A stretch of DNA of 22,209 nt from a virus (Duplodnaviria > Heunggongvirae > Uroviricota > Caudoviricetes). The notes below the pieces were generated by a model. That model made no database searches. It was not told the origin of the DNA and worked only from the letters and a program-made list of their open reading frames with translations. The position numbers were made by a program, and so were the translations under genes. Positions 1,307 to 14,323 of this stretch are shown one piece after another. The stretch lies in IMG/VR virus record IMGVR_UViG_2526164633_000039. The stretch is one strand, 5' to 3'. Numbering within the stretch: the first letter of the stretch is position 1; each line of letters begins with the position of its first letter.

Positions 1307-3778
1307 TTAAAAATCAGCCTGACTCGGGAGCAGTTTTTGCCAGATGGCTGAAACGTATTTCGCCTGGTAACGTGCATCGTTCAGAGCGTTATGGCGTTCA
1401 CCTTCGAATGGAATAGTCGTTCTTGCGTCGAAATCCATCACCAGTCCCAGAGCAACCATCGTTCTTACATCGCGATCATTGGTGTAACGCCACGGGCAGG
1501 GGATCCCCTGCCGTTCATATGAACGGCGTAAAATCACGTTGTCGAAAGTTGCACCGTTACCCCAGACCTGAACAAAAAATTCACCGGAGTTTTCGTCGAT
1601 AAATTCCCGCAATTGTAACAGTGCATCATCTAACGGGATTTCATCGGTCATAATGGCAGATTGCGCTTCGCGTGATTGCTTAAGCCACCATTTAATGGTG
1701 TCCCGATCAATGACTCCGCCAGCAGTTTCCAGATCAATAGTCTTACTAAATTCCGGTCCCATATCTCCGGTTTGCGGATCGAAAAATATTGCACCTATTG
1801 AGATAATCGGGGCATCAGGATTTTTTCCCATGGTTTCAAGGTCGATCATTAGATGGTCACACGTCCTGCTGGTGGATGTGATAACGTGATGACCGTTCAC
1901 CGTAATTAAGGGATCTGCCGTCTCGCCAGTTTCACTATCGCTGGCGTGATCCTGAGCGCTACCAGCATTCTCCTTGTGTGGATGTTCAGCGCCTTCCATT
2001 TCCTCCGGATCATTTTCCTGAACTTCAACCTGATTCTCTTCATCGAATGTTTCCTGGTATGTTGCGTCACCCATCACCGCGCCACAATCATGGCAGTTGC
2101 CACCACCGCTTTGACCGCAGGCGGTGCAGACTTTTTCCGGTTCCTGTTGCGCTACTGGCTCAGGTTGTTTCGTTTCTGGCTCGTTTTGTTGCGTATTTGG
2201 GCTGTTTTGTTCCGCTTTCTGGTCGTTCTGTTCCGATTCTTGCTGGTTCTGGTTTACAGAATCGCGGGTTTCCATCCCCTTTACCCATTTCGGATCATTC
2301 GGGTCGCTAATCCCTGCAACAAATTCTCCGCGAGAGGCAGCAAGCAACTTATCGGCGTCAGGCTGGCTGATATTGGCTGCCTGCATAATTTTGTTTACTT
2401 CGTCAGCGGTAACTTTTACCGGCTCTGGTTGTGCGGTCGTGTCAGATGCACCAGTATTTTGTTGTGAACCTGAGTATGTACTGTTTTTGCGGGCGAAATA
2501 TTCTTCTTTCGTGATTTCAGTAGCCCCGGCAGCCAGTGCCTTATCCAGACCAGAAAGTTTGTTTGCGCGACCGTATTTTTCGCCATCCTTGTCGGTGAAG
2601 AGGAAGTAGAACGGCCCCTCACGCTCTACAGATGGTTCGACTTCCACTTTGCATTCGGTTTTTTCGTTGTCCGGAATTGCCGTTTCCACTGCATCAGTTT
2701 CTGGTACTGACGACGAGAGAGTATCAGTTGCGCTCTGATTTGTTCCTTCATCTTCAAACACGCCCTTTGTAGTCAGGTATTCAGTAATGTATTTGTTCAG
2801 TGCCACAGGGTCTTTGTGAATGTCGATCGGACGTTCACGGACAAGGCCAAAAATAGTCTGGCGGTCGTAGCGAAGGGCATCAGGCTGTTTGCGCATTGAT
2901 GTCGAGATACGCTTCCAGTCTTCGCGGTCGTTGTCGATAACTTCATTTTTTGCCCAGCGATGGATGCTGCCGTCAATGTTTCCGGCATCCACATCACCAG
3001 GCCAGAGAGCGTAGGCCAGTTCGTCATCCAGTGTTTTCCATGTCTGCTTGTATTCGCGATGAATGGCAGCAATGACCAGGCTGATTTTTCCTGTTGAATT
3101 TTCAGTGTGCTGTTGATTGACTCTGGCGCGGGCGAGATCAACAACAGACGTGTATTTTCCGGTTTCCTTGCGTTCACCTTCGCGACGTTTTTTCCAGATG
3201 CGCATCTCTGCCTGAATTTCGGGCCATTTGGCACCAGGCTTACATTTATGCTTAACCCACCCGATGGCATGCAGCTTAAGCTCCGGATACATGGCGTTAA
3301 CTTCTGGCATTTTCATCAACGCTTCAACGATATGTCCGTCGAATGTTGCCATGTCTTCCTGCAACAATTCCTGTGCGCTAATAACCATATCAACGGTGAT
3401 GTTTTCACATGTGTCGAACTTAACCATGACAGCGTTCTGTACTTCAGGGGCCAGCTTGTCAAAAGTGACGTTCATCGGATCGGATTCAGTCTCAACCGGG
3501 ACAAAGGAAGCAGACTCCTCATCCCAGCGGTTTTCCTGCATATATTCAGCATCCCAGGAATCGAGGGCAGGGCGGGGTATGCCGGGTTTATCCTCACAGA
3601 CAATAAATTTATAAGCGCAGTCCTGAGCTGCAGGGAATTGCTCCAGAAATTGCCAATGAAATTTTGCGCGTGCGCGACGCTCATCACCAGCTTCAATGGC
3701 AGTGGCCACCGCAACAGCGCTATCTTCTTTTATGGCCTGTTCATCAGGAATAGCAGCGCAAATAAAGACTTTACTCAT
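1307..3778 (-). CDS. Large phage exonuclease (823 aa) with a C-terminal DnaQ-like DEDDh 3'-5' exonuclease domain, a Cys4 cluster and an acidic low-complexity linker
   Basis: ATG at 3776-3778 with GAGGT about 9 nt upstream. C-terminus shows [12 protein letters not shown] and HNALNDARY motifs typical of DEDDh exonucleases. [16 protein letters not shown] suggests a zinc ribbon. Sits between int and the dicB operon, as in EHEC-type lambdoid prophages. Confidence 0.65.
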
Positions 3779-4247: not shown

Positions 4248-4427
4248 TATCGCGTCCTCAACAATGAATTTTGTGATGCGATGCCTGGTGCCTCCAGGTG
4301 ACGTTAACCAGTTAACAATTAACGCCGGATACAGAGAATCCACCCATAACACTGTTTTTGGTTTTAACTGTTCCGCGTGCGCTCAGCCGCATTCACCACA
4401 TCACAAAATTCACTTTAAAAAGGGCGG

Positions 4428-4485
4428 CAGAGCAGTCACGGAGTAAAACTGATACCGCCAAACGTCACCAGAAAATTGATAACAG
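4428..4485 (-). ncRNA. dicF: DicF small regulatory RNA (ftsZ-targeting) with intrinsic terminator
   Basis: Reverse complement of 4433-4485 reads TTTCTGGTGACGTTTGGCGGTATCAGTTTTACTCCGTGACTGCTCTGCCGCCC followed by a T-run, matching the DicF sequence as I recall it. GGCGG...CCGCC forms the terminator stem. Confidence 0.65.
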
Positions 4486-5516: not shown

Positions 5517-5924
5517 TTATTTTATTGATTTGTTTTTACGTGCTTTAAGCATTTCTTCGAAGAGTTTATTGAAATTCTCTACTCTTGCGCGCATTTCAGA
5601 CAGTAAGGCTTCCTGCTCGGAGGAGGGAAGAGCATCGAATAATTCGATCAATTCTTTGTGGCTGGGAGTTAACTCGGTTTCCACATGAAGTTCTTGTGCT
5701 GGCACTGGTGCCTTGTCTTCGTCACCAAACATTAGCCATGTAGGCGAGCACTTCAGCGCATCAGCTAAAGCAAATAACCGCTTCCCGACCGGTTGGGTTT
5801 CGTCTCTTTCCCATTGTGAAATTGTGACGTGAGCTACCCCAGCGAGGCGTGCAGCTTCTCGTTGTGTTAGGCGTAATTCTTTTCGTCGTGCCAGAACTCG
5901 CTGGCCTAGGGTTCTTGTATCCAT
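5517..5924 (-). CDS. dicA: XRE-family HTH repressor, DicA/CI-like (135 aa)
   Basis: ATG at 5922-5924. HTH signature LTQREAARLAGVAHVTISQWERDE. C-terminal CSPTWLMFGDEDK and EMRARVENFNKLFEEMLKAR resemble DicA as I recall it. Divergent from a Cro/DicC-like gene. Confidence 0.7.
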   Translation of the reverse strand: MDTRTLGQRVLARRKELRLTQREAARLAGVAHVTISQWERDETQPVGKRLFALADALKCSPTWLMFGDEDKAPVPAQELHVETELTPSHKELIELFDALPSSEQEALLSEMRARVENFNKLFEEMLKARKNKSIK

Positions 5925-5926
5925 AG

Positions 5927-5991
5927 TTAGGTAATTCTAATTTTTCTTGACTTAGGTATCCCGCGCACATTACTGTTAGGAATATCTAACA
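5927..5991. promoter_or_regulatory. Divergent promoter/operator region with palindromes TTAGGTAATTCTAA (5927-5940) and TGTTAGGAATATCTAACA (5974-5991)
   Basis: Inverted repeats with the same half-site as 5430-5481, lying between the divergent repressor and cro-like genes. A TTGACT -35-like hexamer sits at about 5947-5952. Confidence 0.45.
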
Positions 5992-6004
5992 AGAGGGGGC
6001 TTTG

Positions 6005-6232
6005 ATGCTTAAAGTTGACGCAATTACTTTTTTTGGCAGCAAAACAAAACTTGCCAATGCCGCAGGAGTGAAACTGGCAAGTGTTGCTGCATGGGGGGAA
6101 CTGGTTCCTGAAGGTCGCGCGATGCGCCTGCAAGAGGCATCCGGCGGGGAACTTCAGTACGACCCCAAAGTTTATGACGAATATCGTAAGGCAAAGCGGG
6201 CGGGGCGGTTGAACAATGAAAATCACCCCTGA
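6005..6232 (+). CDS. dicC: Cro/DicC-like small DNA-binding protein (75 aa from ATG; TTG at 6002 possible)
   Basis: AGAGGGGG RBS 5-8 nt upstream of the ATG at 6005. Divergent from the repressor. Sequence MLKVDAITFFGSKTKLANAAGVKLASVAAW... is YdaS/DicC-like. Confidence 0.6.
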   Translation: MLKVDAITFFGSKTKLANAAGVKLASVAAWGELVPEGRAMRLQEASGGELQYDPKVYDEYRKAKRAGRLNNENHP

Positions 6233-6737
6233 ACAGGTTTGTGAGGCTCTGGATGCCTGGGTATGCCGACCAGGAATGACACAGGAGCAGGCGACGATAT
6301 TAATCACGGAAGCATTCTGGGCTCTGAAAGAACGCCCGAACATCGATGTTCAACGCGTCACGTTTAATGATGGCGAGGTTGATCAACGGGCGTTGGGCGT
6401 TAACCGGGTGAAGATATTCGAACGCTGGAAAGCTATCGACACCAGGGATAAGCGGGAAAAATTCACGGCGCTGATTCCGGCAATTATGGAGGCTATCCGG
6501 ATCAGCGATTTCAGGTTGTATTGTGAAATTACTGACGGAAAAAGCATTACGTACATGATCGCCGGGTTAAACAAAGAATATGGTGATGTGGTGGAGTCCG
6601 GGCTGCTTTTTGCGGATCCATCTGTTGTGGAACGTGAGACTGACGAGCTTATAGAAAAAGCTATTGCTTTCAAGCATGCGTATCGTCAGCAATACCAACA
6701 AAAAGCTGGATGGAATTATGAGCCTTCTTTTTGCTGA
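6216..6737 (+). CDS. Hypothetical 173-aa protein in the cII position (possibly YdaT-family)
   Basis: Track ORF overlapping the end of the dicC-like gene. Family assignment is a weak recollection only. Confidence 0.4.
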   Translation: MKITPEQVCEALDAWVCRPGMTQEQATILITEAFWALKERPNIDVQRVTFNDGEVDQRALGVNRVKIFERWKAIDTRDKREKFTALIPAIMEAIRISDFRLYCEITDGKSITYMIAGLNKEYGDVVESGLLFADPSVVERETDELIEKAIAFKHAYRQQYQQKAGWNYEPSFC

Positions 6738-7683
6738 ACGCCCACTGGTTATAAACACACAGCTTGCGATGAAGATTGGCTTAAATGAAGCCATTGTGTT
6801 GCAGCAGTTGCATTACTGGTTGAGAGATACCAGTTCCGGTATGGAATGTGACGGGGTTCGCTGGATTTATAACACAACAGAACAATGGCTGGAACAGTTC
6901 CCGTTCTGGTCAGAGTCAACGTTAAAACGCGCATTTGCAAGTCTGAAAACGCTGGGGCTTTTGCGTTGCGAAAAGCTCAACAAATCAAAGCGTGATATGA
7001 CTAATTTTTACACGATTAATTACGAGAGTGAGCTTTTAGATGGTGGCAAAGTGAGCGAATCCATCAGGTCAAAATGCGCCGCTCCATCGGGTCAAAATGA
7101 CACGATGGAAGAGGTCAAAATGGCACGCTCCATTGGTTCAAAACGACCCAATGTCATCGGGTCAAAATGGCCTGATGATCTTACAGAGAATACAACAGAG
7201 ATTACTACAGAGAATAAAAACACTTCTCGTCCGGAAGCTTCGCAACCGGACCCGCAGACGGCTGAACAGGATTTTTTAACCCGACACCCTGACGCGGTTG
7301 TGTTCAGTGCGAAAAAACGCCAGTGGGGAAGTCAGGAAGATTTGGCGTGCGCACAGTGGATCTGGGGACGAATCGTGAGTCTTTACGAGCAGGCTGCCAG
7401 CGATGATGGCGAGATCACGCGACCGAAAGAACCAAACTGGACCGCATGGGCCAATGACGTGCGCACAATGCGGATGCTGGATGGCAGAAGCCACAGACAA
7501 ATTTGCGAAATGTTTGGTCGGGTACAGCGAGATCCATTCTGGGTAAAAAACATCATGAGCCCGTCAAAGCTTCGCGAAAAATGGGACGACCTGGTCATCC
7601 GCCTGGGGCGTTCACCTGTACAGTGTTGTGTGAATCATATTTCTGAACCGGATACCGAAATTCCGCCTGGTTTCAGGGGATAA
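6718..7683 (+). CDS. Replication initiator, phage O-like, with origin iterons embedded in the coding sequence
   Basis: Start chosen at the ATG at 6718 (MSLLFAERPLVINTQLAMKIGLNEAIVLQQLHYWL, winged-helix-like N-terminus); alternative starts at 6664 and 6676. Contains five about 17-bp repeats at 23-bp spacing followed by an AT-rich tract, as in lambda O/ori. Confidence 0.6.
   Translation: MSLLFAERPLVINTQLAMKIGLNEAIVLQQLHYWLRDTSSGMECDGVRWIYNTTEQWLEQFPFWSESTLKRAFASLKTLGLLRCEKLNKSKRDMTNFYTINYESELLDGGKVSESIRSKCAAPSGQNDTMEEVKMARSIGSKRPNVIGSKWPDDLTENTTEITTENKNTSRPEASQPDPQTAEQDFLTRHPDAVVFSAKKRQWGSQEDLACAQWIWGRIVSLYEQAASDDGEITRPKEPNWTAWANDVRTMRMLDGRSHRQICEMFGRVQRDPFWVKNIMSPSKLREKWDDLVIRLGRSPVQCCVNHISEPDTEIPPGFRG
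7060..7169. repeat. Iteron array: five copies of about TCCATCGGGTCAAAATG at 23-bp periodicity (candidate replication origin)
   Basis: Copies start near 7060, 7083, 7106, 7129 and 7152 (TCCATCAGGTCAAAATG, TCCATCGGGTCAAAATG, GAAGAGGTCAAAATG, TCCATTGGTTCAAAACG, TCATCGGGTCAAAATG). An A/T-rich ACAGAGAATA-type tract follows at 7176-7240. Confidence 0.65.
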
Positions 7684-7723: not shown

Positions 7724-8131
7724 ATGGCAAAAGTATTTACACAGGAAGAGCGGGAAAAAATTAAAGGACAGGTGGTGGAACTCGTGCGCCAGAGCGGTCG
7801 TGAGACGTTACGGCAACTGGAAGCTAAAACAGGTGCGACAAGATATCTGATGAGCGTTCTTGCCAGAGAGCTGGTTGCCAGTGGTGATGTATATCACTCT
7901 GGCTATGGGGTGTTCCCGTCAGAACGGGCTCGTAAGGACTGGCAAAACGCCCGCAAAAAACTCTCGAGGGCAAAGGTGAAGAAACCTGTTGTGGTTGATC
8001 CGGGCCTTATCTGGACATTACCCGACGGAGAAATACGCCGCTACGACAGGCGTATGAACATAATCTGTCGCGAGTGCCGGAAGAGCGAAGTTATGCAGCG
8101 TGTATTGGCGTTCTATCAGGGATATGCCTAG
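7724..8131 (+). CDS. Hypothetical 135-aa protein, possible winged-helix DNA-binding N-terminus
   Basis: Strong AGGAGGA RBS before the ATG at 7724. No confident family assignment. Confidence 0.5.
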   Translation: MAKVFTQEEREKIKGQVVELVRQSGRETLRQLEAKTGATRYLMSVLARELVASGDVYHSGYGVFPSERARKDWQNARKKLSRAKVKKPVVVDPGLIWTLPDGEIRRYDRRMNIICRECRKSEVMQRVLAFYQGYA

Positions 8132-8499: not shown

Positions 8500-9531
8500 A
8501 TGTCTATTAATCCTAAACTTAAGCGTATCGCGCGACGCTATCCAGCGTTATTCCAATATGAGTCCCCCTATATGGCAAGAAAATTAATAATATTCGGCAA
8601 CGGTCTCGGTATGGCTTTAGATCCTGCTCACTTCTCCTTAGACAGAGCGTTGGAAGAAATTTGGCATCGCCCCAATTTTTTAAAAGATATCCACAAGCAA
8701 CTTATCGAGCGTTGTCTTCAGCGGCAAGGTCCACCAGAAGGAGAACATGAGTTGGATACCCTTCACCAGGCTGTCACATATTGTAAAGCTCTTGCTCAAA
8801 TTGGAGAGGGGAACGTGCATTGGCTTACTGAAGATGGACTAAACTTCCCCAAAATTACCGCCACTTATATTCACAAAGTTGCAACCAGGTTGCATAATTA
8901 CGATAAAGGTTTGCCACAAAGATTCGAAAATGCGCTTGTGGAGTTTGTAAAGAACACACACTCACATATCGCGACATTAAACTATGACAAATTATTATAC
9001 AATTCATTCATAGATAATGATATATTCAACGGGTATGATGGGGTTTTAGTTGATGGGATGCTAAGCCACGGATTTTCCTCTGCAGCGCTCGAACGGAAAT
9101 ACAATCGTAGGTTTGGTTATTATTTGCACTTGCATGGTTCACCACTATTTATTAATCAGCATGAAAATGTTTTAAAACTTTCACGCTCACAACTTACTCT
9201 TGACATAGATGAACCTAGTGAGCATATAGTGTTAACTCATATAAAAAGAAAACCGTCAGTTATAGCAGCATCTAATGTTCTTTCTACGTACTGGGATTAT
9301 TTGCAGTTTGCATTATTTGAATCAGAAGAAATAATATTGTTTGGTTACTCTGGTCTCGATATTCACCTTAACCTGCTTATTCGACCTTACCTAACCTCTA
9401 AGCCTTTAAGAGTAATTGAGTGGAGCGGTGCTGGTGAACAAAACGCTCGTGAGATATATTGGAAAAACCAGTTGAGACGGGAAGTTACTGTAATTAGGTT
9501 GGATAACATCACTGATTTTATTGATTGGTAG
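8500..9531 (+). CDS. SIR2-like (sirtuin-fold, SIR2_2/DUF4020-type) protein, 343 aa; candidate NAD-consuming anti-phage defence effector
   Basis: Motifs read directly from the translation: glycine-rich IIFGNGLGMA (aa 30-39), IATLNYD (Asn161), YLHLHGS (His210/His212), ILFGYSGLDIHL (aa 279-290). These match the order and spacing of defence-associated SIR2 domains. Coding GC is far lower than the flanking prophage (about 32% in sampled 60-nt stretches). Confidence 0.65.
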   Translation: MSINPKLKRIARRYPALFQYESPYMARKLIIFGNGLGMALDPAHFSLDRALEEIWHRPNFLKDIHKQLIERCLQRQGPPEGEHELDTLHQAVTYCKALAQIGEGNVHWLTEDGLNFPKITATYIHKVATRLHNYDKGLPQRFENALVEFVKNTHSHIATLNYDKLLYNSFIDNDIFNGYDGVLVDGMLSHGFSSAALERKYNRRFGYYLHLHGSPLFINQHENVLKLSRSQLTLDIDEPSEHIVLTHIKRKPSVIAASNVLSTYWDYLQFALFESEEIILFGYSGLDIHLNLLIRPYLTSKPLRVIEWSGAGEQNAREIYWKNQLRREVTVIRLDNITDFIDW

Positions 9532-9691: not shown

Positions 9692-9902
9692 TTTTATATT
9701 GGCGAGGTGACGGGAGTTAAGTAGAATTGCTGCGGGTGCTTGAGGCTGTCTGCCTCGGGCATGCCACCGTAAGGCAGACAGAGAAAAGCCCCAGTTAACA
9801 TTACGCGTCCTGCAAGACGCTTAACATTAATCTGAGGCCCAATCTATGCTTCACAAACGTAGGTTAGCCTCTTACGCGCCGAAAGGCAAGGAGAAGCAGG
9901 CT

Positions 9903-10058
9903 ATGAAGCAGCAAAAGGCGATGTTAATCGCCCTGATCGTCATCTGTTTAACCGTCATAGTGACGGCACTGGTAACGAGGAAAGACCTCTGCGAGGTACG
10001 AATCCGAACCGGCCAGACGGAGGTCGCTGTCTTCACAGCTTACGAACCTGAGGAGTAA
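9903..10058 (+). CDS. hokD: Hok/Gef-family type I toxin (51 aa), HokD/RelF-like
   Basis: MKQQKAMLIALIVICLTVIVTALVTRKDLCEVRIRTGQTEVAVFTAYEPEE has the Hok TM segment and conserved Cys. An in-frame upstream extension from 9846 is mok-like. A perfect 10-bp leader hairpin lies at about 9745-9780. Confidence 0.8.
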   Translation: MKQQKAMLIALIVICLTVIVTALVTRKDLCEVRIRTGQTEVAVFTAYEPEE

Positions 10059-10871: not shown

Positions 10872-11611
10872 GTGCGGGTATTACTTCGACCTGTTCTGGT
10901 ACCGGAACTCGGGCTGGTGGTCCTTAAGCCCGGTCGCGAATCACTGCCGGTTTTTCATTGCGGCAGGGTGCTGGTGGAGCCGGAACCGAAAAGCATGCGC
11001 GGTCTGCCGTCCGGAGTCGTCCCTGCCGTTCGCCAGCCGCTGGCGGAGGATAAATCATTACTGCCATTTTTCAGCGATGAGCGTGTGATTCGTGCTGCTG
11101 GCGGCGCTGGCGCACTGTCTGACTGGCTCCTGCGTCATGTCAAATCCTGCCAGTGGCCTCATGGTGACTACCATCACAGTGAAACCGTCATACATCGTTA
11201 TGGTACCGGCGCAATGGTGTTGTGCTGGCACTGCGACAACCAGCTGCGCGACCAGACCTCCGAATCACTCGGGCAACTTGCTCACCAAAACCTGTCTGCA
11301 TGGATGATTGACGTCATACGCCATGCAATGAATGGCTCGCAGGAACGGGAATTATCGCTGGCTGAATTATCCTGGTGGGCGATCCGCAATCAGGTGGCGG
11401 ACGCGCTACCGGAAGCGGTATTACGTCGTTCGCTGGGGTTGCGTGCGGAAAAAATCCGCTCAATGTACCGTGAAAGCGACATCGTACCGGGAGAGCAGAC
11501 CGCCACCAGCATACTGAAACAGCGCACAAAAAATCTTGCGCCGCTGCCTCACGCCCACCAGCAACAGAACCCGCCACAGGAAAAGACGGTGGTCAGCATT
11601 GCTGTTGATCC
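10872..11611 (+). pseudogene. ydfU: YdfU/DUF968-like gene, 5' portion, interrupted by IS66-family insertion
   Basis: Reading frame runs into the IS and terminates at a TAA created by the IS terminus (GTAAGCG). After removing the IS and one copy of the 8-bp duplication it continues in frame into 14324..14633. Confidence 0.6.
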
Positions 11612-11641
11612 GTAAGCGGCTCGCCAGAACCGTATTGATAT

Positions 11642-13213
11642 TTACTGAGAGGTCAGATCAACTTTCCAGGGCAACAGATCGCGTACCCGGTTTGCCGGCC
11701 AATCCTGGATATGCTCAATGACGTAACGCAGCCATTTTTCTGGTTCCACATTGTTCAGACGGCATGTGCCGATCAGCGAGTACAACACCGCCGCATGTTC
11801 GCCACCGCTGTCGGAACCCGCGAACAGCCAGTTTTTCCGGCCTACGGCCACTCCCCGTAAGGCGTTCTCTGCGATGTTGTTGTCGATTTCCACCCAGCCA
11901 TTACTGCAGTACACGTTCAGGCCATCCCACTGTTTCAGCAGGTATGCGAACGCTTTTGCCGTATCCGAGTGACGCGACAGTGTTTTCATCTGAGTCTGTA
12001 TCCAGTCATACAGTGACTGCATCAGTGGCGCAGCTCTGGCTTTTCTTGCCGCCAGACGCTGTTCTGCTGTACATCCCCGGACTTCTGCCTCTATGGCATA
12101 CAGTTCACCGATACGCTGCAGGGCTTCCGTGGTGATGTCGGTGGGCACTCTTGCATGCACATCGTGGATTTTTCTCCGGGCATGAGCCATACACGCGGCT
12201 TCCGTTATTCTGCCGGATTCGTATAACACCCGGTAACCACCGTAAGCATCGGCCTGAAGCACACCGCTGTAACCGGCCAGATGATTTTGTGGATGGATAC
12301 CTTTCCGGTCCGGTGAGTACGCGAACCAGACCGCCGGGGGCATTTCCGAACCGGCGTTACGGTCATCACGGACGTAGACCCACAGCCGGGCGGTCCGGGT
12401 TTTACCGCTGCCCGGCTCCTGGACCGGGACGGGGATATCATCAGCATGGACTTTACCGGGCATCAGCACATACTGGCGCAGGACGTCATACAGCGGCTCC
12501 AGCAGTTCAGCAACGGCACCTGTCCAGCGCCCCAGCGTGGCGCGGCTCAGCTCCACGCCCTGGCGACGGTATATTTCTGACTGGCGGTATAACGGCAGAT
12601 GGTCTGCATATTTCCCGGTAACAACATGGGCCAGAAGCCCCGCTCCGGCATAACTGCGTGCAATGGGTTTTGAAGGTACTGTTGCCTGCACGATATGGTC
12701 GCACCGACAACAGGCCAGTTTCGGACGTTGTGTTTCGATAACCTTAAAGGCGCTGCTGATAAGCTCCAGTTGCTCTGACACATCACACCCCAGAGGACTG
12801 AGGTCACCACCACAGGCCGGGCAGCATTCCTCTTCCGGCCGGATGACCCGGGTTTCACGGGGAAGTGAGGCCGGTAACGGTTTACGGGCTGAAGACTGGC
12901 GCAGGGCGGATGGCAGTACCGGGTCATATTGCTCACCCAGCGTTTCCGCCATTTCTTCCTGAAGTGCGCTGATTCGCTCCTGTGCTTCCTGTATCTGCCG
13001 TTCGGTTTTAGCGCGAAGTTTTTCTGAGCTTTTACCGAACTGCATGCGCTGCAGTTTCGCAACCAGCGCCTTCAGCCGGTTGATTTCGGAAGCATAAGCC
13101 GCCACCCGCTGTGAGAGCAGGCGGTTGTATTTCGCCATCTGGCGGATGGTGTCCTGTTGCGTCTGCAACAGTGCCCGCAGGCGGGCATTCTCATGAGCAA
13201 GTGAGGTGTCCAT
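11642..13213 (-). CDS. tnpC: IS66-family transposase TnpC (523 aa)
   Basis: Intact ORF with N-terminal coiled-coil/leucine-zipper-like region, a Cys-rich zinc-finger region (CPACGG...CCRCDH) and conserved IS66 transposase core. Confidence 0.9.
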
Positions 13214-13232
13214 ATCCTCACTTTACAACGGG

Positions 13233-13580
13233 TTATATGCGGATGCCAGCGCGTTCCGTTCGTTTCGGGTGCTTCCAGTCGATGCCTTCGAGAAGCATGG
13301 ACAACTGAGCCGGAGTAAGGTGAACCTTTCCATCGCGGGTGACCGGCCAGACGAAGCGGCCCCGCTCCAGGCGTTTGGTGAAGAGGCACAGTCCGTCACT
13401 GTCAGCCCACAGCACTTTTATCTGGTCACCCCGGCGTCCGCGGAAGATGAACAGATGCCCGGAGAACGGGTCATCCTTCAGGACGTTCTGAACTTTTGAG
13501 GCCAGGCCGTTAAAGCCATTTCGCATATCGGTGATACCGGCAACCAGCCAGATACGCGAACCGGCAGGGAGAGATATCAT
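13233..13580 (-). CDS. tnpB: IS66-family accessory protein TnpB (Orf2, 115 aa)
   Basis: MISLPAGSRIWLVAGITDMRNGFNGLASKVQ... is typical IS66 Orf2. Start overlaps the tnpA stop. Confidence 0.9.
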   Translation of the reverse strand: MISLPAGSRIWLVAGITDMRNGFNGLASKVQNVLKDDPFSGHLFIFRGRRGDQIKVLWADSDGLCLFTKRLERGRFVWPVTRDGKVHLTPAQLSMLLEGIDWKHPKRTERAGIRI

Positions 13581-14230
13581 CAGTGGCTGCTCCCTTTCAT
13601 TTCGCGGATAAGTGTCTGTAATAACGCCGGTGTCAGTTCACCTTTCAGCCTGAGAGTTCCGGCCGGCAGAACCAGCTCGCAGCACAGACTGTCTGGCAGT
13701 GTATTTATCTGTTCAGGTATCTGCACTGGTGCCGGGATTTTATTATCCGGCTCCGGAGTTAACGTCACGGGAAGTAGCGATGTTTCATGTTCGCCGGGCG
13801 GTTGCAGGCCACCGTTACGCCAGAGATGCCGCCAGTTAAAGAGCAGGTTATCGTTAATTCCATTCTCTCGAGCTATTTGTGCGACACAGGCACCGGGTAA
13901 AAGAGTTTGCTGAACCAGTCTCCATTTAAACTCCGGTGAAAATCGGTTCCGGCGGGGTTTCTCTGCTTTCACAGGCTGAGTCACGGTCGGGGCTGAAGGG
14001 TATCGCCCCGGGAAAAGAGCCCGGGCCAGTTGCCCGCAGGAATATTCACCGGAAAGAGGCCAGTCAGTGAATACCTGGTGAAATCGCCTCACCAGAGAAA
14101 AAATGGCGGTTTTGCTGACACCAGTCTGCGCAGAAATGCGCGGGTACGACAGTGACTCGTCAAATCTCAGCTGTAGCACACGCAGGATCAATTCTGGATT
14201 ATCTGCCAGTACCGCTTTTCGTGCATTCAT
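13580..14230 (-). CDS. tnpA: IS66-family accessory protein TnpA (Orf1, 216 aa as drawn; a shorter internal start is possible)
   Basis: First ORF of the element, with an HTH-like N-terminus. ATG at 14228-14230. Confidence 0.75.
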   Translation of the reverse strand: MNARKAVLADNPELILRVLQLRFDESLSYPRISAQTGVSKTAIFSLVRRFHQVFTDWPLSGEYSCGQLARALFPGRYPSAPTVTQPVKAEKPRRNRFSPEFKWRLVQQTLLPGACVAQIARENGINDNLLFNWRHLWRNGGLQPPGEHETSLLPVTLTPEPDNKIPAPVQIPEQINTLPDSLCCELVLPAGTLRLKGELTPALLQTLIREMKGSSH

Positions 14231-14323
14231 CTTAAATGTCCTTTTACTGCGAAAATGGACATTAGTATCGGAAACAGGAAAGGGAGGCGAAAGACGGTTT
14301 AAATGATGCGCTTACGTTGATCC

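Follow-up and report, generated by a model that had tools for sequence, protein, structure and literature searches.

A probable replication origin of palindromic 23-bp iterons inside the chimeric initiator gene of an Escherichia coli lambdoid prophage

Does an array of 23-bp repeats in the middle of a prophage replication gene serve as the replication origin of that prophage? The question is raised by a 22,209-bp stretch of DNA (IMG/VR record IMGVR_UViG_2526164633_000039; hereafter the window, meaning the whole stretch that was analysed), an E. coli lambdoid prophage of the mEp460 type. An earlier note on this DNA had proposed an origin-like array inside an initiator gene, followed by an A/T-rich tract, as in the lambda origin. 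Comparative evidence strongly supports this proposal, lambda having the same order and orientation, and we hold with good confidence that the array is a replication origin bound by the product of the gene that contains it. The host gene of the array is the following.

6718..7683, + strand: initiator gene, 321 residues, with the putative origin in its middle third; PHROG 391 "replication initiation O-like", E = 7.5e-95.

The repeats were found where the earlier note had placed them. A repeat search located five 23-nt copies starting at 7062, 7085, 7108, 7131 and 7155, and Tandem Repeats Finder run on the window returned a period of 23 with 5.3 copies over 7047-7169. The "exact 23-bp spacing" claimed for them stands for the first three intervals (23, 23 and 23) and fails for the last, which is 24, so the spacing is nearly exact; a sixth unit upstream had also been overlooked. 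This degenerate unit lies at 7039, in phase, and scored 12.3 against a position weight matrix (PWM) built from the five copies. The complete array comprises six abutting 23-bp units, five clear and one degenerate, spanning 7039-7177 at spacings of 23, 23, 23, 23 and 24.

7039..7061, unstranded: iteron unit 0, degenerate, GATGGTGGCAAAGTGAGCGAATC; PWM 12.3, 23 bp from unit 1, with stronger counterparts in homologues (15.8-20.9).
7062..7084, unstranded: iteron unit 1, CATCAGGTCAAAATGCGCCGCTC; PWM 23.8.
7085..7107, unstranded: iteron unit 2, CATCGGGTCAAAATGACACGATG; PWM 30.6, an inverted repeat and the best palindrome (18/23).
7108..7130, unstranded: iteron unit 3, GAAGAGGTCAAAATGGCACGCTC; PWM 19.5.
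7131..7153, unstranded: iteron unit 4, CATTGGTTCAAAACGACCCAATG; PWM 24.1.
7155..7177, unstranded: iteron unit 5, CATCGGGTCAAAATGGCCTGATG; PWM 29.7, 24 bp from unit 4.

The window contains exactly four copies of the 10-mer core GGTCAAAATG, each of them within the array, against a chance expectation of about 0.04 for both strands (by arithmetic); copy four carries GTTCAAAACG, and copy three has a divergent left arm (TGGAAGAGG...). Each unit is also nearly palindromic, a property absent from the earlier note. The unit consensus is the near-palindrome CATCGGGTCA AAA TGACCCGATG, with 10-18 of the 23 positions self-complementary in the individual units compared with a window-wide mean of 5.5, and the logo of the wider family reads GA---GG-CA AAW TG-CC---TC. 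An inverted iteron candidate at 7267-7284 scored below the PWM reporting threshold of 8 and sits in a C-terminal module common to proteins with non-cognate N-terminal domains; it was not counted. No DnaA box (with at most one mismatch) and no clustering of GATC was found in 6900-7400, no Rfam family matched the array site, and promoter- and terminator-like matches were at chance level.

The idea that the 23-bp register places all sites on one face of the DNA did not hold up, as 23 bp rotates successive sites by about 69 degrees in B-DNA. At 10.5 bp per turn the six units point to 0, 69, 137, 206, 274 and 17 degrees, about one spiral round the helix, and they coincide in rotation only at 11.5 bp per turn. 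DNA wrapped round a multimeric complex is more readily reconciled with such a spiral than with a planar array.

The array is constrained as DNA. Its units fall in all three reading frames in the window, and the 224 sites found in divergent loci use the three frames 81, 52 and 91 times. Among 59 unique variants of the gene (91-100% identity), diversity at third codon positions was 0.138 in the N-terminal domain, 0.030 in the iteron array, 0.008 in the tract of 12-mers that follows it and 0.169 in the C-terminal part. In a sliding analysis this diversity remained at 0.013-0.033 over 7048-7257, compared with 0.06-0.27 elsewhere in the gene (Mann-Whitney p = 6.8e-9), which delimits the following segment.

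About 7048..7257, unstranded: DNA-constrained segment, the likely extent of the cis-acting origin as judged from synonymous-site conservation (sliding third-position diversity).

The array is further co-inherited with one part of the encoded protein, whose two domains are as follows.

6718..7047, + strand: N-terminal winged-helix domain (N-domain), residues 1-110, the probable iteron-binding module.
7264..7599, + strand: C-terminal domain (C-domain), residues 183-294, homologous to the lambda O C-domain; tblastn 39.3%, E = 1e-17; BLASTP 39% over 112 residues, E = 1e-27.

A scan of viral contigs with the N-domain alignment gave only relatives of at least 96% identity and was replaced by a species-dereplicated genome scan. 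It yielded 80 loci encoding the N-domain at 47-100% identity, from Enterobacterales, Pseudomonas, Campylobacterales, Bacillus, Geobacillus and Staphylococcus. The PWM, built from the window only, detected 248 sites at +290 to +520 from the gene start (13.6 per kb) versus 13 in the other 306 kb (0.04 per kb). At least one site was present in 68 of the 80 loci and at least three in 50, with sites set apart by multiples of 22-24 bp. An autocorrelation analysis that does not use the PWM gave 23 bp as the best period in 52 of 79 loci. The N-domain itself is fused to at least three C-modules in different hosts (lambda-O-like, Phg_2220_C and DnaB_2/DnaD-like). A natural module swap gives the reciprocal case: the relatives L004, L005 and L010, from Shigella, Klebsiella and E. 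coli phages, keep the lambda-O-like C-domain and the C-terminal tail on an HTH_36 N-domain, and in the position of the array they have another repeat, the 15-bp TCTGACCCGTCAAAA. The three reading frames, the synonymous constraint, the co-inheritance and the module swap together show that the array behaves as the cognate site of the N-domain. The swap also supports the proposal that the array defines the replicon specificity of the prophage, since relatives with the same C-domain and an HTH_36 N-domain have another repeat.

Directly after the array lies the A/T-rich, repeat-containing stretch described earlier, which we could confirm and resolve into a second repeat element.

7182..7219, + strand: three oriented 12-bp repeats, TACAGAGAATACAA / AACAGAGATTACTA / TACAGAGAATAAAA, detected by repeat searches; putative unwinding or loading element.

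The motif of these 12-mers in the window is ACAGAGAATACA. GC content falls to 0.30 over 7175-7224, compared with about 0.5 on both flanks, with an AT skew of +0.43; the least stable 40- and 50-mers of the whole open reading frame (ORF) lie in this tract (the least stable 40-mer at 7181-7220) and rank in the top 0.7% of the window. Another A/T-rich patch, at 6994-7023 (the least stable 30-mer), falls within the sequence encoding the wing of the N-domain, shows ordinary third-position diversity and was excluded from the origin. In the 300 bp that follow the array, 76 loci together contain 152 copies of the motif CAGAGAnTA[C/A], spaced at a period of 12; there are 7 copies elsewhere and none on the opposite strand. 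The 12-mers are nearly always translated in one frame, as T-E-x-T, a constancy that made the frame test uninformative. A synonymous-codon test was used in its place, in which T-E-x-T was found at the protein level and its codons were compared with the rest of the same ORFs. Threonine in T-E-x-T is encoded by ACA in 78% of cases versus 20% elsewhere (p = 8e-55), and glutamate by GAG in 98% versus 48% (p = 2e-30). The HTH_36-type relatives lack the 12-mers, which go with the N-domain and the iterons irrespective of the C-module. Together with the fixed synonymous codons, this marks them as a second cis element, one with a set orientation. An unwinding or loading site is suggested by where they lie and by their low stability; that they are read as single strands is speculative.

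These tests bear on the proposal that the periodicity is that of a repeated or low-complexity peptide linker selected as protein. A hydrophilic segment is indeed encoded, with a predicted local distance difference test (pLDDT) score of 44 at residues 111-120 of the structural model, and the nearly constant T-E-x-T frame of the 12-mers also speaks for it. Nevertheless, 23 bp is impossible as a peptide period, the copies lie in three frames, and the third codon positions of the array region are the most conserved in the gene. The fixation of threonine on ACA and of glutamate on GAG, contrary to codon usage elsewhere in these ORFs, adds to this, and we give a protein-level explanation, contradicted by both the frame and the codon tests, next to no credence.

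A different account would treat the conserved DNA as a recombination "linker" at a module boundary, retained because it allows N- and C-modules to be shuffled among mosaic phages. The junction of the N-module with at least three different C-modules lies just past the 12-mers, and the unusually low central diversity is what an often-exchanged stretch would show. Such a linker nevertheless leaves the palindromic units, the 22-24-bp phasing and the strict orientation of the 12-mers unexplained; the motif is conserved among Staphylococcus, Bacillus, Pseudomonas and E. coli elements that share no identity in their flanking DNA, and the array moves with the N-domain, giving way to another repeat where that domain has been exchanged. 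We consider this account highly improbable. The array and the 12-mers are, on the comparative evidence, DNA-level elements co-inherited with the N-domain.

Co-inheritance establishes a partnership of protein and site, which is not the same as initiation, and the repeats could be N-domain sites for autoregulation, copy control or incompatibility (by titration or handcuffing) with initiation elsewhere. The array lies within the transcription unit of the initiator itself, as such a role would have it. Plasmid iterons commonly serve both control and initiation, a point that we count in favour of control sites. Against this stands the constant succession of array and oriented, DNA-constrained, low-stability element, a hallmark of origins and not of operators. 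Moreover, no second cluster of PWM-matching repeats exists in the 22-kb window, and the same position is that of the origin in lambda, pSK41 and SPP1 (PMC5703833; PMC5737612). A purely regulatory array is on this evidence unlikely, with a small chance left to it, and the reading as an origin is preferred.

What kind of initiator would act at this origin? The 321-residue protein has no Pfam match at E ≤ 0.01 and no NCBIfam match, and its RefSeq name is "hypothetical protein" (WP_000054523.1). An AlphaFold2 model of residues 1-120 has a winged-helix topology with a mean pLDDT of 83.7. The fall in pLDDT at residues 111-120 coincides with the start of the iteron-encoded segment; the array covers residues 108-153. 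The fold is closest to plasmid RepA_N and is of the RepA/DnaD-NTD winged-helix type (NTD, N-terminal domain). The N-domain has no detectable homology to that of lambda O (hhalign of its profile against lambda O residues 1-121, probability 0.14%; no Phage_rep_O match). In contrast, the C-domain matches at E = 1e-17 (tblastn) the O genes of many lambda and Stx phages. Hence the designation "O-like gene" is right for the C-terminal half, 39% identical to lambda O at E = 1e-27, and not for the N-terminal half. The initiator is a chimera of a RepA_N-like winged helix, RepA_N-style iterons and a lambda-O-type C-domain.

The N-domain is common to initiators of Klebsiella, Providencia, Pseudomonas, Geobacillus and Staphylococcus phages, and its family numbers 16,107 representatives of 50%-identity clusters at E ≤ 1e-3. 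Among 120 listed homologues, none carries a precomputed Pfam domain in this region. Many of the top family representatives are 400-880 residues long with profile matches in two separate stretches, which suggests proteins with two N-domains in tandem.

The protein ends in a further short element.

7627..7680, + strand: C-terminal tail, residues 304-321, CVNHISEPDTEIPPGFRG; phmmer against PDB matches DnaT chains 2ru8, 6aep and 9zbt at E = 0.08-0.2.

This stretch of 18 residues, SEPDTEIPPGFRG, can be aligned over its full length with the final 18-20 residues of host DnaT chains. Five relatives with other N-domains or a different C-domain (L002, L003, L004, L005 and L010) also end in P(A/P)GFR(G/S) or SGFRT, and no loader gene is present among their modules. 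The tail looks like a portable short linear motif, one that possibly docks onto host primosome components. Records of mEp460 name the protein "Primosomal protein I". We rejected a DnaT identity, as only the last 18-20 residues align and no Pfam or NCBIfam DnaT match was found; the label probably derives from the tail alone.

The surroundings of the gene are those of a lambdoid immunity region and early-right operon.

5517-5924, - strand: helix-turn-helix (HTH) repressor; Pfam HTH_3.
6002-6232, + strand: Cro/YdaS-like gene; Pfam P22_Cro and RefSeq annotation.
6216-6737, + strand: CII/YdaT-like gene; Pfam YdaT_toxin, PHROG CII-like.
7724..8131, + strand: DUF977/Ren-like gene, at the place where lambda has P and not a helicase loader; Pfam DUF977, E = 1.7e-29, PHROG 142.

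The annotations of the homologous prophage and of phage mEp460_ev081 include neither a P/DnaC-type loader nor a helicase. Three genomes deposited as phages (mEp460_ev081, HannyBb and PhiR42_1) carry the initiator gene at about 91-96% identity, likewise without a loader gene. The 2.2-kb region from cro through cII and the initiator gene to the DUF977 gene is 100% identical in three complete genomes, among them strain FDAARGOS_1059, where it lies in a prophage beside yccA, and is 91-97% identical in many others. Among 5,426 complete E. coli genomes, 1,390 cover at least 80% of it. The number of places matched by this query has a median of 2 and a maximum of 8 per E. coli genome. Co-resident prophages may share iteron specificity, with cross-activation or incompatibility as possible results.

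The N-domain is also encoded in 87 plasmid records. One of these (L174; NZ_CP008942.1) is a 15-kb plasmid of the alphaproteobacterial Candidatus Paracaedibacter, in which a 418-residue N-domain protein (5736-6992) lies beside ParA/CopG and is the only candidate Rep. Within the gene are a pair of CCGACAAAATGTCGG palindromes at a distance of 22 bp and a stretch resembling degenerate 12-mers, and the C-terminal part of the protein gives a sub-threshold DnaA_N match (E = 0.008). This suggests that the cassette also drives true plasmids, paired with yet another helicase-recruiting module. The loader-less phage genomes, the plasmid records and the sole candidate Rep of this plasmid support an autonomous function.

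Whether the origin is still used in this particular genome is a separate matter. The window contains two IS66-family copies, 94-97% identical, at about 11612-14300 and 20602-22209 (the window end), the first with a TnpC-like ORF of 523 residues (11642-13213, - strand). This copy appears to break a DUF968 gene, which measures 10872-11615 here versus an intact 1,050 bp in FDAARGOS_1059; the apparent interruption means that the prophage may be decaying. The array might accordingly be a fossil, a once-functional origin no longer used in this genome. The two IS66-family copies speak for it, as does FDAARGOS_1059, whose terminase gene is split by an IS66-like element in the prophage that carries the 100%-identical locus. 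On the other side, the initiator still has an intact ORF, with all six units and the 12-mers preserved within it; identity of the 2.2-kb region remains complete in three genomes and at 91-97% in many others, and the synonymous constraint seen in 59 variants points to selection that continues in the family as a whole. A fossil origin is very unlikely on these grounds, and even so would bear on activity in one strain and not on the nature of the element.

The other features of the window lie outside the replication module. A SIR2-like ORF (8500-9531, + strand; Pfam SIR2_2, E = 1e-5) is in a moron position between the DUF977 gene and hok/sok; it matched Aga_SIR2 and PDC-S21 in PADLOC at about 4e-6 to 8e-6. 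It is a candidate anti-phage defence gene, with weak and non-diagnostic matches. A hokD-like ORF (9846-10058) accompanies sok. Rfam detected DicF small RNA (4422-4473, - strand), sok antitoxin RNA (9734-9908, + strand), STnc100 small RNA (17564-17754, + strand) and three tRNAs (17239-17488, + strand), which ARAGORN assigned to Met(cat), Arg(tcg) and Arg(tct); RefSeq calls the first tRNA-Ile in the homologous prophage. An exonuclease-like ORF of 823 residues (1307-3778, - strand) has a C-terminal Rv2179c-like 3'-5' exoribonuclease domain (E = 1.3e-65). It also holds overlapping 21-bp tandem repeats at 2145-2251, probably a peptide repeat because the 21-bp period is in frame.

How, then, might the origin work? 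We envisage a theta-type replication origin of the mEp460-type E. coli lambdoid prophage next to yccA, embedded in the middle of the initiator gene. Dimers of the N-domain would bind the six abutting palindromic iterons at 7039-7177, a step well supported by co-inheritance, fold and palindromy. On the model of lambda and pSK41, the phased A-tracts and the 23-bp register may then bring the DNA into a wrapped or spiralling O-some-like complex. Strain in this complex would open the adjacent least stable, A-skewed tract at about 7178-7225; opening by the N-domain complex is inferred with good support, the position of the tract being conserved and its role speculative. The oriented 12-mers, conserved at the DNA level, may more speculatively be read as single strands. 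The lambda-O-type C-domain and the DnaT-like tail could recruit the helicase-loading machinery of the host, as the prophage encodes no P/DnaC-type loader or helicase; whether by the DnaB-DnaC or the PriA/DnaT pathway is a matter of speculation. The array DNA would double as code for a low-confidence inter-domain linker, as in pSK41 Rep, the low confidence itself having been seen for residues 111-120 only. From the gene order, transcription of the cro-cII operon would cross the origin, as at lambda pR, with a possible activating effect.

Several observations weigh against this picture. Twelve of the 80 loci, mostly from Bacillus and Neobacillus, have no PWM match; some of them carry variant palindromes and some no obvious array. 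The variants, found in some Bacillus-type loci and in the Paracaedibacter plasmid, are TGTTCA-AAA-TGAACA, TGATCA-AAT-TGATCA and CCGACA-AAA-TGTCGG. The PWM survey favours query-like sites and so biases the logo, a bias of which the positional enrichment and the phasing are independent. The low diversity in the centre of the gene could partly stem from recombination history rather than constraint. The tract after the array is only about 70% A+T, less extreme than that of lambda. Similarity to RepA_N is structural only, at 12% identity and with no match to Pfam or PDB at the sequence level. The DnaT-tail match is short (18 residues, E of about 0.1), and the cryo-electron microscopy literature on DnaT leaves the function of its extreme C-terminus unresolved (PMC13377028). 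Finally, given the two IS66-family copies, the origin may never fire in this strain.

The locus adds one more case to a well-established design, and iterons within a gene of this kind would not surprise a specialist; a description of this particular origin type was not found in the searchable literature. The analysis assigns a probable origin, and with it a replicon specificity, to a widespread type of E. coli prophage. It also exposes a large family of DNA-binding domains that lacks a Pfam model and whose recognition site can be read from the encoding genomes, an aid to origin annotation in phages, phage-plasmids and plasmids. The chimera links replicon types usually kept apart and illustrates the exchange of "NTD plus ori" cassettes. 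What stands out is the conservation of the site across phyla, the triplet of oriented 12-mers, and the pairing of a DnaT-like tail with the lack of a loader; triplet and tail offer testable handles on DNA opening and on host helicase recruitment by loader-less phage initiators. A bolder proposal, which we advance tentatively and regard as possible rather than probable, treats the N-domain, its 23-bp palindromic sites and the ACAGAGAnTAC triplet with its fixed orientation as parts of a single origin cassette, ancient and portable, that belongs to a RepA_N-like superfamily. In it, the 12-mers would be a sequence-specific single-strand or unwinding element for the initiator or the host primosome, and the tail would plug a loader-less initiator into host DnaT/PriA or DnaB-DnaC.

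The Rac prophage of E. coli K-12, which carries oriJ, resembles the window in its succession of repressor, Cro/YdaS, YdaT, replication gene(s) and DUF977/YdaW-type gene. An oriJ-type replicon was rejected, as K-12 Rac has YdaU (DUF1376) and the DnaC-like ATPase YdaV at this position, a different family with a loader. Phage SPP1 has its oriL inside gene 38, where initiator-bound repeats and an adjacent A-T-rich DNA-unwinding element are sufficient in vitro (PMC5737612). It shares with the window the location of the origin in the initiator gene, and the G38P family, pfam09524 (Phg_2220_C), provides the C-module on the same N-domain in Klebsiella phage Kp4886-3. SPP1 differs in its repeats, which are of 11-12 bp and 9 bp and give no PWM match, and in encoding its own loader and helicase (G39P and G40P). 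Membership of the G38P type was rejected, with an hhalign probability of 0.13% for the N-domain and no Phg_2220_C match in the window protein, although relatives such as L003 have one.

Phage lambda has its ori inside gene O, with variants in Stx phages (PMC7466680). Lambda and the window both have dyad-symmetric iterons, each with a central A-run, inside the initiator gene between its two domains; in both the gene follows cro and cII in the early-right operon, and the C-domains are homologous. In lambda, too, the iterons are followed immediately on their 3' side by an A-rich tract with the least stable 40-mer of gene O, in the same orientation to transcription as here. The spacing is similar, with iteron starts that we measured to be 20, 24 and 23 bp apart in lambda and 23/23/23/23/24 in the window. 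Lambda has four 19-bp units with spacers and the window six abutting 23-bp units, and the N-terminal DNA-binding domains are unrelated in sequence. Unlike lambda, the window has a sequence-conserved oriented 12-mer triplet in its A/T tract, no P gene, and a protein ending in a DnaT-like tail that lambda O does not have.

The repeats and their putative reader resemble those of RepA_N plasmids. The iterons of these replicons are direct repeats that are themselves semi-palindromic, with inverted arms meeting at a poly-A tract (PMC7145576), a layout repeated here in the consensus CATCGGGTCA AAA TGACCCGATG. In pSK41 Rep (319 residues), a winged-helix N-terminal domain (residues 1-120) binds four Rep boxes lying centrally in rep (PMC5703833). 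Residues 121-199 are ori-encoded and dispensable as a protein linker, and the C-terminal domain (CTD) is host-specific (PMC5703833). The window likewise has its probable origin central in the gene, encoding a putative inter-domain linker, next to a CTD that is variable and host-related. Plasmid pPR9 has even exchanged its "NTD plus ori" for an HTH_36 phage-type module while keeping its CTD (PMC5703833). Membership of RepA_N by sequence was rejected, as PF06970 gave no match even at E ≤ 5 and a profile search of PDB found no RepA chains. RepA_N replicons (pSK41 and pTZ2162, and the RepA of Vibrio cholerae PLE) further differ in a CTD that binds DnaG, in place of the lambda-O type; they are plasmids, not prophages, and the RepA_N texts consulted do not mention an oriented 12-mer element. 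RepA_N has been reported to be almost confined to Firmicutes (PMC7145576), whereas the RepA_N-like fold is seen here in Gram-negative prophages that are themselves abundant, and the N-domain family is abundant in Proteobacteria as well as in Firmicutes. Taken as a whole, the architecture of the origin matches those of lambda, pSK41 and SPP1.

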